Below the pieces are notes generated by a model. That model saw only the letters and a program-made list of their open reading frames with translations, had not been told where the DNA came from and made no database searches. DNA of 63,963 nucleotides, the filler included, from Licmophora abbreviata (Eukaryota): the NCBI GenBank assembly GCA_900291995.1. It is 7 parts of 7 records of this genome, joined end to end, with 100 filler letters (N's around TTAATTAATTAA, not from the genome) between each part and the next. Parts side by side here need not be neighbours in the genome. Positions count along the whole stretch, not along the records: positions 49,579 to 57,067 come from OLMU01003034.1; 6 more parts are not named here. The stretch is one strand, 5' to 3'. Shown piece after piece: positions 49,962 through 56,736 of the stretch. A program made the translations under genes and the position numbers. Within the stretch, counting starts at the first letter, position 1. Every line of letters begins with the position of its first letter.

Positions 49962-51050
49962 TCAAACATTCTCAACGGCATCGAGGCTTTGTACTCTCTC
50001 GTAGCCCTTCTGTGCTCGTTCGGTCGCGGTGCAAAATACGACAACGCCACCACAAACTATTAGCAACGACAGTAGCTTCACTTGAGAAAAGCACATTTCC
50101 TGACCTCCGAGACGTCCACAGTAAGCCCATGAGGTCACAACAAATACTAGCACGGCCTGCAGTCCCTTCATCACTCCAGCACTCGTGGCCCCGCCAGCGT
50201 AGTGTCTCAGGGTGTGGAAGAAGCTGATACTGTGAAGAAAGTTTGCAAGCGCAAAGGCCACCATGATGCCAAATGCGTACATCAATGATGTCCCAGCTTC
50301 TTCCATTGGCTGAAGTATTAACTCCTCATAACGGGGCAGTGTATAGATGACCTGCCATATCAGCATTGCAACTAGAGCGACGTTCCCTTGAACAGCGCAA
50401 TTCACGGGATACGACAGGGGTTCGTCCCCATGAGTCATGATGGCTTCGCTCATGACATACGTCAAGGCATGCATAACTGATCCACAGAGTACTAGCAAAG
50501 AGCCGTGGAAGACCTGAGGGCCCAATGAAATCGAGTTCAGACCCGTAATGGTCAACCCACCAAAGACTATACATACGCCGATCCATTGCAGTGGCGTCAT
50601 TCGCCGCGACAAGAGAAATCGAGAAAAGAAAGCAGTCCACACCGTCACTGACGAATAGATGATCGAGAAAAGAGTAGGTCCTGCCAGAGTCGCTCCGGTG
50701 TAGTTCAACGCCTGAGCGAACAAGTCAAAACCGGCGATGCCCGCGCACTTGAGGGTTGCGGCTCGAGACGGCCATTCAGTCCCTTTCCACACCAGATAGA
50801 ACGTCACACTGGCAGGTCCCATGTAATAAAACAGCATATAAACCTGACAGCTGGAGTCTGCTAAGCCTGCTTCTTTGGCCAGTGCCATTATAAGTGGCTG
50901 TGTGACGCCCGAAAGCACGTAGATGGCTGCAAGCGCGTATGTGAGCGCCGCTTCCGGAACATGGCGAACTTCCATCTTCTTTTGCATCTGGCTCATTCGA
51001 AACTCTACTCTATTCTGCAGGGACCCACACATTCGCAATAATGGTGCCAT
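49962..51050 (-). CDS. EamA/SLC35 (DMT superfamily) transporter
   Basis: About 10 hydrophobic segments; IIYSSVTVWTAFFSRFLLSRRMTPLQWIG and GATSAGVMKGLQAVLVF. The true start may be at 50996. Confidence 0.85.
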   Translation of the reverse strand: MAPLLRMCGSLQNRVEFRMSQMQKKMEVRHVPEAALTYALAAIYVLSGVTQPLIMALAKEAGLADSSCQVYMLFYYMGPASVTFYLVWKGTEWPSRAATLKCAGIAGFDLFAQALNYTGATLAGPTLFSIIYSSVTVWTAFFSRFLLSRRMTPLQWIGVCIVFGGLTITGLNSISLGPQVFHGSLLVLCGSVMHALTYVMSEAIMTHGDEPLSYPVNCAVQGNVALVAMLIWQVIYTLPRYEELILQPMEEAGTSLMYAFGIMVAFALANFLHSISFFHTLRHYAGGATSAGVMKGLQAVLVFVVTSWAYCGRLGGQEMCFSQVKLLSLLIVCGGVVVFCTATERAQKGYERVQSLDAVENV

Positions 51051-51550: not shown

Positions 51551-54500
51551 TTATACCGCCATAGATCCGCCAAACCCGCCAATGCTGGGCTGGAGTGGAG
51601 TCAGATTCGTCAGAGTATCACTGCCGCTATCGATCGGCGATGGGGCCTTCTTTTTCATTGGTCGCGAGCCACCGCCATGTGTTCGACACAACTGGAGCTT
51701 TCCAATGGCAACGCGGTTGCACCCGTCCAGTTTGCAACGTACGCCGCCCCCGTGCTGAAAAAGGAAAGAATCAAGTGAGGCCAAACTTCGTTCACGGGCC
51801 ACATTCTACATAGGCACACACATAGCATCACTTACGCCTGCGCAGAATTTTGTCCTTCCACGAGCCACTTTCTGACAACCAGGGTTTGCGCACTTCTTGC
51901 CGCCCCCATGCTTGACGCAAAACTTAGTCGATGACTGGGCCGACTTGTCGCATCCTTCGATAGAGCAGCGCCGTCCACCCCCATGACTAGTACAAAGACT
52001 CGATCCTCCCACGGCCGACTTTGTGCATCCTTCGAACCTACATCGCTTTCCGCCTCCGTGACTGTACATTACATTCAATACACCGAAAAATCATGTGTTA
52101 GGTCGTACCGATGAGAAATACACAAAGAGGTCATGCTTTCCCATTTCAAATACTTACGCCGCACAGAAGAACTTGTCCCGGGCTCCTTTGTCGCAGCCTG
52201 GGTGTGTGCATCGTCGACCTCCTCCGTGCGCAATGCAGAATCGAGTCGATCCCTGCGCACACTTAGGACAGCCAGGAGATTCGCATAGGCGATTCCCGCT
52301 ATGCCGAGTGCAGTAGGGCCTCCGGGCTACCGCCGCTTCGCCACAGCCTTCGATACGACACATCTACGATTGGAGTAAACGTTGACACGGTGTGAGAAGA
52401 AATTCGGCGAAACGATTCGAGGTGGCGAGAGAAATTGACAATACCTTTGTTCCGGCTACAACCGGCTGCGTGTCAATGGGAATGCAGTATTGTTCGCCGG
52501 TGAGAGAATGCACGGGTTCAGGAACCACGGGCATAGAAAAATTTGATGTAGTAGATGCCAGTTGCATCTGGTAGGAGGCCGCCCCTGCGCTCACACTGTA
52601 TGTCGGTCTTGAAGCAATGTTACTCATCGGAAGCGACAACGAGCCGTTCACTGCAGGACCCTGGAACGCTGACGCAGACACCGGAGTGCCTAGTGGCAGC
52701 GAAAGGCTCGGAAATGGTTGCGACGTCTGAAACGGAAACGTCTGAACCGGCGCGATCGGCTGATTACTTGGTGTTTGCACGGTAATGTGAGCTCTTTTTG
52801 ATCCCGAAGAGTTGGTGTCGATGTGTTGGTGCGCCGTCCAAGGGACCGCTTCGCCAACGGCCTTGACCGCTTCCTGCAAGTGGTTCTGCACGAAGTTATA
52901 AGTCTCAGGGGGGACCTGCGAGGCAGCAGAGGAATCAATGTTGATACTCTGAGGCGTCGGCATGCCCGATACATCGTCTGGTAGACCAAGAGTTTGCAGC
53001 TGAATAGACAACGACGAGCTCCTCTCACGAGCTTGTTCCTGAAATCAAAGCGAAGAAAAAGGGTCGAGACAGTAAGCGCGATGGCGATTGCGTGACATCG
53101 ATGGAGCGACAAGCTGAATCAGCTACGTACCAAGGTAGAAATAGAGTTGTGCGGGCGCTTCTTGCGGAGAAACTCCTGCTGCATCTCCACGTCGGCAGCC
53201 ATTTCTCCAAGATCTGCAGGGGCCACGTCCTTCCACAACTCCTTGCTCACACTCTCGTGAGGTTCGACTGTTTCGAGGCCGGTCCAGAGAAGTCGCAAAG
53301 CTTGTTGAACAAACCTCAGAACGGTTGGCACTGGGTCCGCCCTTACAAGAGAATAGCACCCCACGACACAGCTCGGCGACGAGCTCCCTGTTGAGAATAT
53401 GGGCACGGCGAGCGCTGCTTGTATCTTTGCTTGATCGAAGGCTAGGACACGCTGCGAATCAACAATCACGGACTGGCAACGAATGAACATCGTTAAGTGA
53501 GCATACGATCCCGAGCATCCTGGGCAGCTACATCTTCAAGTTGTGACTTCTTACATAGTTCGCACTCCAGACTGGATTTCCGGATGCGAAAGCTCGCCCC
53601 ACTGCTCCTTCCCACAATTCAACATGAGCATGCTTTGAAAGACGTTTGAATTCACATAGCGCCTCGTTCGTTTCAGAACTCGTAACAGAAGTGACATGGC
53701 ACAGACTATCGTAGCCTTTTGTGCTACTCTGCGGAATCCACACGTCGCAGACATCGAACACCGACATGCCAAGGAATGCAGTCGCAAATTCCTCCAGTCG
53801 TTCCTTCTGAAGTGCAGGCATAATTGGCTTATTCACCTCAACTATCGCCGAGGATCCATTGCCGACCGTTACCCCCGCACTCTGTCTCACATTACCGTGC
53901 TGTTCTGGGTGGTACCCAAGAATACCGTTGTCCGACCCGCTATTCATAATCGTCGACCATACGCCAAACGAAGCCTCGTCAAAAGCATCGCTATGCTGCG
54001 ATTCAGAACCAAGCGCACTATCGTCGATCGATCCGCCGAGTTCCGCGAAGGATGGGAGCATTGGTATTCCAAAGCAGTCTTTCGGTGCATCTGTCAAGTC
54101 GGAATGCTAGCGGCGATGCGGAAAAGAAATACAAAGAAAATCACGTGAGACGTATTGCAGTCAGTAGGAGCAGAGAAGAATCGACCTAACCCAGGACGTA
54201 CATGCTCCGTATCTTCTAACGACACATAATGAGCGACTACTCCATCGCCAAGTGAGGGGTCTTCGTAATGAGGTTGTTCGGCGAGGCCATCTTGGTGTCC
54301 ATCTTCGAGAGCGGGACGCATCGTGTTCGAATCAAACACCGGGAGCAAACACGGAATCGACGACGAAGTGGCGCTTCGACTGATAAACTGAAGATACTCC
54401 ATCGCATCATCCGTACTCTCAATATTTTCAGGAGAAAACATGACAACCACACACATATTTCCTTCCGAGTCCACCGCAACTGGCATGCCGACGGCCGTCT

Positions 54501-55187
54501 GTAGACGCATGTCCGAACGTCCCAGAAGTCCCTCGCGTTTCTCACAATTCGCCCAGACCACCTGGGCGGTATTCGAAATTGCATCGACTAATTGTGGGGA
54601 GAGAACGTGTTTCTCTAGATCCTCACTAGAACACGCTGCTTCCTCCTCTCGGTTCGATTCTTCAGGATTGACTAGATCCGAACGCCGGTCCGTGTACGAC
54701 TTGGACGTATAGAGCTGAACAAATCGAAGTTTTCGATTCGCAGCATCCTCACCGTCGCCATCAGCCGTGCCTGTAGATCCAGACTCATCCTTCTTTTCCT
54801 CTAAATGATTCAGTGGCGAAACGCAGAGGCGACAAGGGGGCAGAGAAGACGGTAAGACATCATGAAGGACAACAACATCAACTCTCTCTAAAACTTCATC
54901 CGAAGCTTGGGACTTTTGATGATCACGTGACGTGTCAACAAGAAAGCATCCGTTATTCCATAATCAATATTGTGGGAGAGACGACCGTATTTATGAAATA
55001 CGACATTCACGAGACGCTCGTCACAGCTCGGAGACTCGACGATTGGGTTCCGAAGAGACGAGCACGTACCAATGGCCATGAGCGTCGAGGAGCCATTTTG
55101 GTTCGATGTCCACCAGACTTCTCCAATATCAAACCCTAGACCTGCACATGCCACTTGCAGATAAGCCCGAACGCGTTCCGGGTCCAT
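51551..55187 (-). CDS. Multi-exon protein with N-terminal GAF-like domains (NIN-like-protein type) and seven WRKY19-like C-x4-C...C-x2-HGGG zinc fingers
   Basis: Consecutive same-strand exons with GT-AG boundaries encode FDIGEVWW, TAVGMPV, FDVCDVW, GAVGRAFASGNPVWS and AALAVPIF, then a P/S/Q linker, then repeats such as CSIEGCDKSAQSSTKFCVKHGGG. Confidence 0.72.
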
Positions 55188-55456
55188 GGTGCTTGTCTGC
55201 GCCTTGAAAAAGGACAGCGGGTTTTGGCTTGTTTGTCGCCACTGATCTCGATGGGGCGCACAAAATGAAGTTCAAGCGTGTGCCCGAATACCGAATACAG
55301 ACTGGGCAAGAACGATCCGAGATTCCTCACGTAGATTCTACGTGGAATCTGTACTGCCACGTTGATCCCGCCAATCATCTTTATCCCTACTTTGTGAATA
55401 TTGCATGCCTGATTTCTTCAAGAGTTAGTTCACTTTTCCTTCTGTGGTCTAAACGT

Positions 55457-56428
55457 TTAGTTATTACTAGCCAATGAACTACTAGGCGGCATCATATCAC
55501 CGAGGCCTGCGACAGCTGTGCCAGCAACCTCGGTCGACAACACGGCCACCGGCACTTCTACTTTCGCCGCCGCCTGACTGACCGGAGGAGGAGTCTTCGG
55601 CTTGCGTTTCATTCCGCCCCCCGTCTGTTTTTTTGGCTTGGCGGATGCCGGAACTGTCCCTTTTAAGAGAAGTTGGGTTTCGTCTTTTCCTTCCATGCCA
55701 AGCGGTACCATGTGTTCTCGCGCCAGCAACTGCCACGAACGCGCCGATTTTTCAAAGATCACTTCCAGCCAATGCAAGTCGTCTGGCGACGACGATGAGT
55801 CTTTCACTTGCTCGTAGGTTCGCTTTTCCAAATCGTCGTCGTAAACAACACAACGAATAACTGGTAATTTCCAGAGTGACTTTTTCGATGAATCGTCGTT
55901 GTCATTAGCATGAATCGTCTCGCCGCCTGCGGACAAGAAGTACAAGGCAGACAAGACCATTTCTTTGGCGTCCATTGTAGCGGGTACAGTTCCTGGTGAT
56001 ATCGAGAGGCAGCATTGTCGTAATATTGCCTTGGTTGATACCGGAGACGGTGATGACTGCACCACCTGAACGATTGACTGGAAAAGAGACAGTTTTCCGT
56101 CTTGAGCCAATCCAAGCATGGTGTCCTCATCCATGGAGGGGTCCACAGCCCGTCTCTTGACGGTGGCTCGAGAGGAAGCAAATAAAGACGGAGTCGATAG
56201 TTTCTCCATCGCCGATTCACTAGTCGGATTTGACTCTTTCAAAACGCTCTCTCCCAACAAACCATGCAAGACCCTTCGGGCGGCGTCGCTGGTGTGCGTC
56301 GTAGAACGTACTGTCTCGCAAAGAAACGCCATGCCGCTGCCCTTTCGTTTTCGATAGGCGATGCGCGAGATCTGCTTTTCCTCAGGTGCCCAAGGATAGG
56401 GAGAAGCCAAGGGAGTACGGTCCACCAT
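55457..56428 (-). CDS. Hypothetical nuclear protein, possibly with an NFRKB-like winged helix
   Basis: 323-aa intronless ORF with basic NLS-like motifs. LSLFQSIV...MVLSALYFLS loosely resembles the NFRKB winged helix (weak resemblance). Confidence 0.55.
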   Translation of the reverse strand: MVDRTPLASPYPWAPEEKQISRIAYRKRKGSGMAFLCETVRSTTHTSDAARRVLHGLLGESVLKESNPTSESAMEKLSTPSLFASSRATVKRRAVDPSMDEDTMLGLAQDGKLSLFQSIVQVVQSSPSPVSTKAILRQCCLSISPGTVPATMDAKEMVLSALYFLSAGGETIHANDNDDSSKKSLWKLPVIRCVVYDDDLEKRTYEQVKDSSSSPDDLHWLEVIFEKSARSWQLLAREHMVPLGMEGKDETQLLLKGTVPASAKPKKQTGGGMKRKPKTPPPVSQAAAKVEVPVAVLSTEVAGTAVAGLGDMMPPSSSLASNN

Positions 56429-56736
56429 TATGGATGTGATGATCGGTCAAGGCAGAAATGTGAACAGTGCCAAGGCCACAGTTATTGCAATGTGGGCGCA
56501 ACAGCCTCACTGTTATCTGTTATCACTGTTAACACGATCGTGGGTTTTCGATCTCCAAATAGCTCGCAAGTCATTGGTCATCGAAAGCGGGGGGCGACGC
56601 GACAATGATATCGTGTCTCGTGTCCATGTTCAATGAAGTATCCGCACTTCGACTGATCCATCTCGTTTCCTCTCTCACTATGAGGCGATCGCTGAAGGTC
56701 GCACACTAGAGACCAGACGCTCTGTTCACTTTCCAT

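Follow-up and report, generated by a model that had tools for sequence, protein, structure and literature searches.

The minus-strand interval 51551–55187 of the Licmophora abbreviata DNA examined here constitutes a single protein-coding gene of eight exons, whose 946-residue product joins an N-terminal half containing a confidently predicted GAF fold to a C-terminal array of seven cysteine/histidine fingers of the WRKY19 type. The window is a 63,963-nt stretch assembled from seven parts of seven records of assembly GCA_900291995.1, with 100-N filler between parts; the gene lies within the part derived from OLMU01003034.1 (49,579–57,067), and all coordinates count along the whole stretch. The same architecture recurs in a family that appears, as far as seen in our searches, to be confined to pennate and centric diatoms and bolidophytes, the latter being the sister group of diatoms. 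We propose, with a probability of roughly 0.6, that the protein is a lineage-specific, signal-regulated regulator of gene expression that would reside in the nucleus, bind nucleic acid through its fingers and be gated by its GAF-like half.

Gene structure and its support

The gene reads from an ATG at 55187–55185 to a TAA at 51553–51551, and joining the eight exons gives an open frame with no internal stop. All seven introns (81–269 nt) have a GT donor and an AG acceptor. The exons and their contents are listed in the table.

Table. Exons of the Licmophora gene, with the encoded features and the basis for each assignment. GAF2 denotes module 2.
Feature	Coordinates	Strand	Content	Basis
Exon 1	55070..55187	-	aa 1-39; start of module 1 (N-terminal helix, first strand), including FDIGEVWW	ATG at 55187
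Exon 2 (revised acceptor)	54202..54800	-	aa 40-239; remainder of module 1 (conserved core to near aa 196, 54331), then a variable acidic stretch	Homologue alignment
Exon 3	53555..54106	-	aa 240-423; conserved motif APKD.FGIPMLPSFAELG in a linker, then variable sequence; GAF2 begins near aa 335 (53821), its first half lying in this exon	Weak GAF_NLP match, E 0.02
Exon 4	53131..53472	-	aa 424-537; remainder of GAF2, whose core ends near aa 490 (53272), near-invariant helical extension ..VAPADLGEMAADVEMQ.., then basic motif KKRP	Intron 3 position conserved
Exon 5	52445..53038	-	aa 538-735; poorly conserved S/P/Q/A/T-rich linker with one conserved motif, ..G.KRAH..	Composition and conservation
Exon 6	52158..52363	-	Fingers 1 and 2, most of finger 3	Pfam Zf_WRKY19 and regular expression
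Exon 7	51836..52061	-	His of finger 3, fingers 4 and 5, most of finger 6	Pfam Zf_WRKY19
Exon 8	51551..51754	-	His of finger 6, finger 7, short basic tail, TAA	Pfam Zf_WRKY19

The first-pass annotation had interpreted a chain of short minus-strand ORFs as one spliced gene, an interpretation borne out by the splice sites, the open frame and collinearity with homologues, with one correction at the start of exon 2. The first in-frame acceptor of intron 1, which would start exon 2 at 54887 and add 29 residues, was rejected because this insert is absent from all 18 rows that cover the exon 1/2 junction in a 22-row homologue alignment; the acceptor at 54800 restores the aligned junction '..IE|EKKDE..'. 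The initiator methionine aligns with the start in 15 of 18 N-terminally complete homologue rows, while two begin five residues further in and one carries an N-terminal extension. Already with the 54887 acceptor, the first model was collinear throughout with full-length homologues, the best of them, P0003, aligning through its residues 1–1012 with model residues 1–948 at 54.5% identity.

A public sequencing run, the only one holding any of the stretch (0.06 of sampled words), yielded two contigs of 163 and 160 nt, at 52252–52414 and 52833–52992. The 163-nt contig crosses the boundary between intron 5 and exon 6 unspliced and the molecule type of the run is a guess; the run is therefore uninformative on transcription or splicing. 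If the two halves were separate head-to-tail genes or transcripts and the spliced model an artefact, an exon 5 of low complexity and poor conservation would be unsurprising. Such an arrangement is nevertheless very improbable, given the frame that stays open across eight exons with canonical splice sites and the conserved motifs held in the linker. Moreover, transcriptome assemblies of other diatoms place both halves in one ORF: the transcriptome-derived P0081 (1148 aa, 'type:complete') carries them on one mRNA and aligns to first-model residues 1–943, and P0133 and P0319, also derived from transcriptomes, likewise carry both. Fingers are also present in 107 of 120 GAF2-bearing proteins, as described below.

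Fold and affinities of the N-terminal half

Structures were predicted on the homologues P0003 and P0099, and the whole-domain tests of GAF2 were likewise made on homologues of the Licmophora protein. In an AlphaFold model of P0003 residues 1–545, built from a 50-row alignment, pLDDT reaches 87–97 over about residues 345–480, and a Foldseek search of the PDB with this model returned 61 matches at E ≤ 1e-3, nearly all of them GAF or GAF-like. EGL3 ranks first (1.8e-6), with NreA at 3e-5 and MYC3 at 6.7e-5, the best seven rows all being EGL3 chains in complex with MYB partners. Superposition of residues 349–503 with VIA-align gave Z scores of 12–14 to dozens of GAF structures, among them fRMsr (4mmn; Z 14.1, rmsd 2.1, 127 aligned), MYC3 (4ywc; Z 13.8), EGL3 (7fdo; Z 13.7) and NreA (6izk; Z 12.1, rmsd 3.0, 136 aligned). 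On the strength of this model we are confident in assigning module 2 a compact, canonical GAF fold. GAF2 further has polar positions that do not vary (D, K, N, D, R, T and Y), the pattern expected of a conserved binding site; these residues may line a pocket.

Module 1 was modeled with a mean pLDDT of 52. Its weak Foldseek rows are GAF domains (best E 2.5e-3), and a non-Foldseek search of 48,161 chains gave a best Z of 7.7 (3p01), the 50 rows shown being nearly all GAF, phytochrome-GAF, LuxR or IclR ligand-binding domains. Language-model (Atlas) features likewise place the module with GAF clusters, the top three of which are plant GAF_NLP clusters (0.93, 0.92 and 0.91), a resemblance to plant NLPs that we treat as a lead only. 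Taken from the predicted models, module 1 is probably GAF-like, with long disordered inserts. The first-pass description of two related N-terminal modules holds as to their presence and less firmly as to their kinship, for which hhalign gave a 26-column hairpin match (P 7.6e-4, probability 25%).

Profile searches place the N-terminal half in the GAF clan at low scores. The Pfam scan of the Licmophora exons returned only GAF_NLP from this clan, at 14.9 bits on exon 3 against a cutoff of 24.1, and none of GAF, GAF_2, GAF_NLP and bHLH-MYC_N exceeded its curated cutoff in these exons or in 14 close homologues. Among 31 divergent members, P0231 lies above the cutoffs for bHLH-MYC_N (31.8 bits, cutoff 30.2) and GAF, and P0194 above that for GAF; no others do. 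The best Pfam match is bHLH-MYC_N in 13 of the 14 homologues and in 12/12 GAF2 segments (best E 2.7e-5). GAF_NLP, the weakest of the four sub-threshold GAF-clan matches on module 2, appears in three of the 12 segments and two of the 14 homologues, scores at best 21.1 bits anywhere (the divergent member P0305) and is outscored by bHLH-MYC_N in every Pfam scan. No GAF protein was retrieved at E ≤ 10 when the family profiles were searched against PDB sequences; the rows for phosphofructokinase, tailspikes and TBP in that search are at chance level (all E ≥ 0.15).

Collectively, these results leave the earlier label of an 'NLP-type' GAF half unsupported as it was stated. The GAF assignment stands on the homologue model, and the suggested AlphaFold and Foldseek check, run on P0003, returned a GAF fold with no NLP chain among the rows shown; the NLP qualifier is unspecific, with bHLH-MYC_N ahead of GAF_NLP and EGL3, MYC3, fRMsr, PDE and NreA tied in structural comparison.

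The finger array and the family

A regular-expression search of the spliced protein found exactly seven C-x4-C-x9-10-C-x2-H units at residues 737–905, far beyond chance, with a period of about 25 residues; GGG follows six of the units and SGN the first. Against Pfam Zf_WRKY19 (PF24906; curated cutoff 27 bits), exon 6 scored 55.6 bits (E 4.4e-15) and exon 7 scored 78.0 bits (E 4.4e-22), each over three stretches, and exon 8 alone fell just below the cutoff (25.1 bits, E 1.6e-5). All 14 full-length homologues scanned lie above the cutoff at 117–147 bits, and the finger columns are 83–95% identical among the 22 homologues. The seven repeats first noted after the disordered linker are accordingly well founded. 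The Pfam scan of the exon 5 translation, covering that linker, returned no family.

Exon 7 also matches the profile of the EsV-1-7 repeat (PF19114), the stramenopile-enriched tandem Cys/His repeat of IMMEDIATE UPRIGHT in brown algae, over positions 1–11 of 35 (E 0.0031, 17.8 bits). This 11-residue match lies below the cutoff of 25, and the EsV-1-7 family, unlike the present one, has no GAF half. In bioRxiv 10.1101/2024.02.19.579948, EsV-1-7 is put forward as no more than a possible new type of zinc finger, and is described as absent or single-copy in most stramenopiles other than brown algae.

A protein search with exon 3 alone recovered 217 proteins at E ≤ 1e-3 (best 1.2e-51). Run against 1.84 billion representatives, a profile of GAF2 alone recovered 202 with E values up to 1e-3, and 156 of these matched at 1e-10 or better. 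PF24906 is present in 107 of the best 120 GAF2 matches of 560–1784 aa, and the architecture is conserved across diatoms. Named members include Seminavis, Nitzschia, Fistulifera, Cylindrotheca, Epithemia, Amphora, Mayamaea, Entomoneis, Attheya, Skeletonema, Thalassiosira minuscula and the bolidophyte Triparma laevis; no Phaeodactylum or T. pseudonana gene ID occurs among the named matches listed. Orthologues from Seminavis robusta, Nitzschia inconspicua, Fistulifera solaris, Attheya, Skeletonema, Triparma laevis and others are uncharacterized and carry names such as 'WRKY19-like zinc finger domain-containing protein' or 'hypothetical protein', which at most record the fingers, omit the GAF half and come with no described function. 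They resemble the Licmophora protein end to end in architecture, at about 45–55% full-length identity, and share its seven-finger array and GAF2 with the VAPADLGEMAAD extension, but differ in lineage-specific loops and in linker length (851–1248 aa overall).

Short database fragments of the family are informative about its annotation: 46 of 59 end at the exon 3/4 junction or no more than one residue from it, confirming the expectation that ORF-level annotation would fragment the gene. The break falls at a conserved intron halfway through the GAF domain and hides that domain from profile searches.

Proposed role and alternatives

We propose an architecture in which two GAF-like domains lead through an acidic helical extension and the KKRP motif, and then an S/P/Q-rich linker, to seven CCCH fingers. 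An input signal would act on the GAF-like half, which would gate how active the finger array is, where it is located or which partners it takes; the array itself would bind nucleic acid. The signal might be a small molecule bound in the GAF pocket, or else a peptide from a partner protein, as for the N-terminal domains of plant MYC and EGL3. The short basic motifs suggest that the protein is nuclear. The literature searched contains no experimental evidence that Zf_WRKY19 (PF24906) fingers bind DNA, and for this reason we infer, rather than assert, the term 'transcription factor'.

Several alternatives bear on this scheme. Possibly, the GAF-like half serves for protein docking, like its counterparts in plant MYC2/3 and EGL3, and is not a small-molecule sensor, with a bound repressor, co-activator or partner transcription factor controlling the fingers; we consider this a plausible minority reading. 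The plant bHLH-MYC_N domains (the JAZ-interacting domain of MYC3, 4rru/4ywc; EGL3, 7fdl/7fdo) occupy the same position as the N-terminal regulatory domain of a transcription regulator, provide the best Pfam match throughout, including the P0231 match above cutoff, fill the seven best Foldseek rows with MYB-bound EGL3 chains, and tie for the top VIA Z scores (13.7–13.8). The near-invariant acidic helical motif after GAF2 would also suit an interaction or activation segment. The Pfam scores are, however, below cutoff in all relatives but one, the structural scores are tied with those of ligand-binding GAFs, structural identity is 13–15%, and the Licmophora protein has two modules instead of one; a ligand pocket fits the same data equally well. 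Furthermore, no bHLH (HLH) domain was found in the eight exon translations, the 14 homologues or the 31 divergent members, the C-terminus being the finger array, and diatoms are not known to have a JAZ- or MYB-type partner. The output half invites a different doubt, namely that the CCCH array binds RNA or proteins under regulation by the GAF half, for instance to act post-transcriptionally or as a scaffold; the protein would then be no transcription factor. Many RNA-binding fingers have ligand sets of the CCCH type, and the finger exons show weak Pfam side matches to cysteine clusters from outside transcription factors (CxC6, Transp_Tc5_C and Nab2-zf4), which, with the lack of published DNA binding by PF24906 in the literature searched, gives this reading some substance. 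We judge it unlikely, as the combination of a sensor-type domain, a low-complexity linker, repeated fingers and the basic KKRP and KRAH motifs fits a nuclear regulator.

A nutrient-sensing role deserves separate consideration. Diatoms respond fast to nitrate and other nutrients, and RGQ1 is a diatom GAF-containing nitrogen regulator. If the GAF half were a nitrate-binding domain of the NLP7/NreA type, the protein would be an intracellular nitrate or nutrient sensor of diatoms with zinc fingers as output in place of RWP-RK and PB1. Like plant NLP7 (GAF_NLP, PF22922), it begins with a GAF-like region that carries long inserts and precedes a putative DNA-binding output, and the weak GAF_NLP matches, the Atlas affinities of module 1 and the superposition of GAF2 on the single GAF fold of the staphylococcal nitrate receptor NreA (4iuh, 6izj, 6izk) all point in this direction. 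Yet NreA, a stand-alone bacterial protein, is no closer to GAF2 than unrelated GAFs are, with fRMsr, MYC3, EGL3 and PDE6 all scoring above it. According to PMC12423327, its nitrate site comprises W45, the G66-L67-A68 helix cap and Y95-P96-I97 and is formed mostly by backbone amides and that one tryptophan, and would therefore leave little sequence signature. GAF_NLP falls below cutoff everywhere and behind bHLH-MYC_N in every scan, the PDB searches with family profiles retrieved no GAF protein, and the GAF2 profile misses the large plant NLP family, the 150 best of its 202 matches being the family itself or its fragments. Neither RWP-RK nor PB1 was detected in the eight exon translations (E ≤ 1), the 14 homologues (E ≤ 0.1) or the 31 divergent members (E ≤ 0.001). 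None of these results links the family specifically to nitrate, and we regard nitrate sensing as improbable. The same low odds attach to the broader idea that diatoms have in this family their missing intracellular receptor for nutrients, in which an NLP/MYC-type GAF-like pair would bind nitrate or another nitrogen-status signal directly and switch a seven-finger DNA-binding array. On this idea, the family would have originated in the ancestor shared by diatoms and bolidophytes, independently of the output domains of plant NLPs.

The literature searched contains no paper describing the GAF2/Zf_WRKY19 family, nor do the titles and abstract openings of the listed papers that mention diatoms, GAF domains, nitrate and transcription factors refer to it. 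In one such paper, the sole diatom GAF mention is an unrelated T. pseudonana gene ID.

The signal-regulated regulator that we favor carries a practical lesson, in that ORF-level gene calling breaks the family in the middle of a GAF domain, at a conserved intron. The family provides a first functional handle on WRKY19-type fingers. It is sharply delimited (202 of 1.84 billion representatives), highly conserved, and combines sensor-type GAF-like domains with a zinc-finger array; being delimited, conserved and undescribed in the literature searched, it offers for diatoms and bolidophytes a well-defined candidate regulator, lineage-specific and under signal control, that lends itself to experiment.

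Gene structure and surroundings

The minus-strand stop-to-stop ORFs in 51551–55271 contain the strings quoted in the first-pass annotation, and joining these pieces at canonical sites gave eight exons with GT at all donors and AG at all acceptors, running from an ATG at 55187 to a TAA stop at 51551–51553. A first model of 975 aa, with exon 2 starting at 54887, aligned over residues 1–948 with residues 1–1012 of P0003, the closest full-length database protein (54.5% identity), and likewise end to end with the homologues P0036, P0070, P0099, and P0081. This model was rejected: its 29-residue insert was present in none of the 18 homologue rows (of 22) that cover the intron 1 junction, and residues 40–68 had an occupancy of 0.18–0.52 in a 23-row alignment. 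P0036 carries four additional residues at this junction, without the 29-residue insert. With an in-frame acceptor 87 nt further downstream, the junction reads '..IE|EKKDE..', just as in the homologues. So revised, the coding sequence encodes 946 aa, with introns 1–7 of 269, 95, 82, 92, 81, 96, and 81 nt; given its limits, the interval originally assigned to the gene spans exactly ATG to stop. The proposal that the ORF pieces splice into one gene thus held, with GT-AG sites throughout, end-to-end homologues, and one exon boundary corrected. At 54801–54887 (minus strand), intron 1 has a pair of in-frame AG acceptors 87 nt apart, the upstream one of which may define an alternative splice form or may simply be unused.

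Coordinates of the revised exons and neighbouring genes
Feature	Position	Strand	Remarks
Exon 1	55187-55070	minus	revised CDS
Exon 2	54800-54202	minus	revised CDS, corrected acceptor
Exon 3	54106-53555	minus	revised CDS
Exon 4	53472-53131	minus	revised CDS
Exon 5	53038-52445	minus	revised CDS
Exon 6	52363-52158	minus	revised CDS
Exon 7	52061-51836	minus	revised CDS
Exon 8	51754-51551	minus	revised CDS
EamA-like / nucleotide-sugar-type transporter	49965-51050	minus	362 aa, single ORF; EamA E 4.1e-8
329-aa ORF	55460-56446	minus	no Pfam match at E≤0.01

The transporter gene lies about 500 nt downstream of the stop on the same strand. The upstream ORF ends about 270 nt from the ATG, which leaves the gene a very short promoter region.

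As anticipated, ORF-level annotation fragments the gene: 46 of 59 short database fragments stop within one residue of the exon 3/4 junction at aa 423. Many matches to a profile of the second N-terminal domain (module 2, or GAF2) span profile positions 2–86 or 86–194 only. Together, these fragment ends and half-domain matches indicate that the GAF2-splitting intron is widely conserved. Intron 3 (53473–53554) cuts GAF2 directly after a ..NPVWSAN. motif and appears conserved in many diatoms.

N-terminal modules and zinc-finger array

Structures were predicted for the homologues P0003 and P0099, not for the spliced 946-aa protein. For P0003 residues 1–545 (50-row alignment), pLDDT was 87–97 over about 345–480 and 72–89 to about 530, and module 2 was modelled in the order helix, two strands, helices, strands, helix. 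With E≤1e-3 as the limit, Foldseek retrieved 61 PDB matches. EGL3 chains took the first seven places (1.8e-6 to 9.5e-6); a cAMP-binding GAF domain, the staphylococcal nitrate receptor NreA (3e-5), MYC3 (6.7e-5), and numerous classical GAF domains came after them. VIA-align mapped all these structures to model residues 349–503 with Z of 11.4–14.1: fRMsr 4mmn, 14.1 (rmsd 2.1, 127 aligned); MYC3 4ywc, 13.8; EGL3 7fdo, 13.7; PDE6, 13.4; and NreA 6izk, 12.1. Module 2, on this homologue model, is a GAF fold in which no single subfamily stands out, in agreement with the GAF content first ascribed to the N-terminal half.

The module 1 model (P0099 residues 1–196, 114 alignment rows) was poor, with a mean pLDDT of 52 (core 60–78); Foldseek returned nothing at E≤1e-3, the weaker matches being GAF domains. 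In an unbiased comparison with 48,161 chains the best Z was 7.7, and nearly all of the best 50 chains were GAF, phytochrome-GAF, LuxR, or IclR ligand-binding domains. Profile–profile comparison of the two modules matched the last beta-hairpin alone (26 columns, P 7.6e-4, probability 25%). Module 1 is probably GAF-like.

GAF2 is directly followed by an acidic motif, ..VAPADLGEMAADVEMQ.., and then by KKRP (53131–53270, aa about 491–537), a stretch that matches no Pfam family. This stretch is invariant or nearly so and predicted to be helical, and its acidic helix may be an interaction or activation segment. A ..G.KRAH.. motif is kept within the otherwise variable S/P/Q-rich linker; the basic KKRP and KRAH motifs are possible nuclear localisation signals.

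A regular expression located seven C-x4-C-x9-10-C-x2-H units at aa 737–905, and none in the window's other genes. Their starts are 25 residues apart (24 from the third to the fourth), and GGG follows six of the seven, with SGN after the first. Pfam Zf_WRKY19 (PF24906, cutoff 27 bits) matched exon 6 at 55.6 bits and exon 7 at 78.0 bits, three stretches each, and one stretch of exon 8 alone at 25.1 bits, below the cutoff; the seven WRKY19-like fingers claimed earlier were thereby confirmed. Introns 6 and 7 each directly precede a finger's His.

Distribution of the family

Searched against longer proteins, the 184-aa translation of exon 3 by itself matched 217 at E≤1e-3 (best 1.2e-51, 54–55% identity). 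None of the longer proteins searched was a 100% match, so the L. abbreviata product itself is absent from that collection at ≥323 aa. All 14 full-length homologues scanned carry six detectable Zf_WRKY19 stretches. PF24906 was found in 107 of the 120 best proteins of 560–1784 aa matching GAF2 (query, P0003 residues 340–545). From 1.84 billion cluster representatives, a GAF2-only profile built from 12 sequences recovered just 202 proteins with E≤1e-3, of which 156 reached ≤1e-10; the best 150 of the 202, all at E≤1.9e-13, were all family members or fragments of members. In a Pfam scan of 31 divergent or long members, fingers were found in 17, and the other 14 had GAF-type matches or none, with no alternative output domain.

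Among the matches listed, under source-database organism names, are pennates (Seminavis, Nitzschia, Fistulifera, Cylindrotheca, Epithemia, Amphora, Mayamaea, and Entomoneis), centrics (Attheya, Skeletonema, and Thalassiosira minuscula), and the bolidophyte Triparma laevis. Phaeodactylum tricornutum, Thalassiosira pseudonana, and Fragilariopsis are not represented among the named homologue matches listed; in these diatoms the family may be absent, wrongly modelled, or simply outside the listing.

Affiliation and possible inputs

Across 12 GAF2 segments, Pfam matches were to bHLH-MYC_N in 12 (best E 2.7e-5), GAF_2 in 10, GAF in eight, and GAF_NLP in three (best 0.0047), all below curated cutoffs. 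The 14 full-length homologues gave 13, six, three, and two, respectively; among the 31 divergent or long members, one exceeded the bHLH-MYC_N cutoff (31.8 vs 30.2 bits) and two the GAF cutoff. By Atlas language-model features, whose scores are leads only and uncalibrated for partial proteins, GAF2 was closest to mixed GAF clusters, and module 1 to three plant GAF_NLP clusters (0.93, 0.92, and 0.91; 162–166 features in common) and then bHLH-MYC_N. Pfam found no RWP-RK, PB1, or bHLH domain in the exons, the 14 full-length homologues, or the 31 divergent or long members. By these sequence matches and absences, the domain falls, with those of NLP and MYC, among the loosely grouped GAF-like N-terminal domains of transcription factors, but the protein is outside both families. 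The "NLP-type" label is therefore not supported: unlike plant NLPs, the protein has neither RWP-RK nor PB1, and no one structural subfamily stands out.

The most economical reading, to which we assign a probability of about 60%, holds that the protein is a nuclear regulator, lineage-specific and under signal control, whose GAF-like half would receive the signal and gate the finger array, the candidate inputs being a partner protein or a small ligand. That the halves are separate transcripts is scarcely credible, since transcriptome ORFs flagged complete (the homologues P0081, P0133, and P0319) hold the GAF half and the fingers, and in other species one mRNA therefore bears both. A partner protein received in the MYC/EGL3 manner is a tentative and rather unlikely input: bHLH-MYC_N is the commonest Pfam match on GAF2, but no bHLH domain occurs in the sequences scanned. 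NreA binds nitrate with the W45 side chain and, at two helix caps, with the main-chain amides of L67, A68, and I97, while L61, G66, Y95, and P96 shield it (PMC12423327); two reviews state that the NLP7 N-terminal GAF-like region binds nitrate and resembles NreA (PMC13766177, PMC11062454). The family described here keeps W-x-G-A-V-G-x-A unchanged at the first pocket-helix cap, and at the following helix a D and an R are likewise invariant; fold comparisons with NreA give residue ranges, not residue pairs, and the family profiles found no GAF proteins among PDB sequences. A glycine-rich helix cap at that position seems generic to GAF domains. Nitrate sensing, raised in the first-pass annotation, is thus neither supported nor contradicted; nitrate specifically is a quite improbable candidate input.

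As for output, a literature search found no published experimental studies of PF24906, and for the related EsV-1-7 motif of brown algae a preprint goes no further than to call it a possible novel zinc finger (bioRxiv 10.1101/2024.02.19.579948). We consider it unlikely that the array targets RNA or proteins, not DNA. The proposed nuclear regulator would combine a familiar principle, control by GAF domains, with an output of unusual, uncharacterised fingers.
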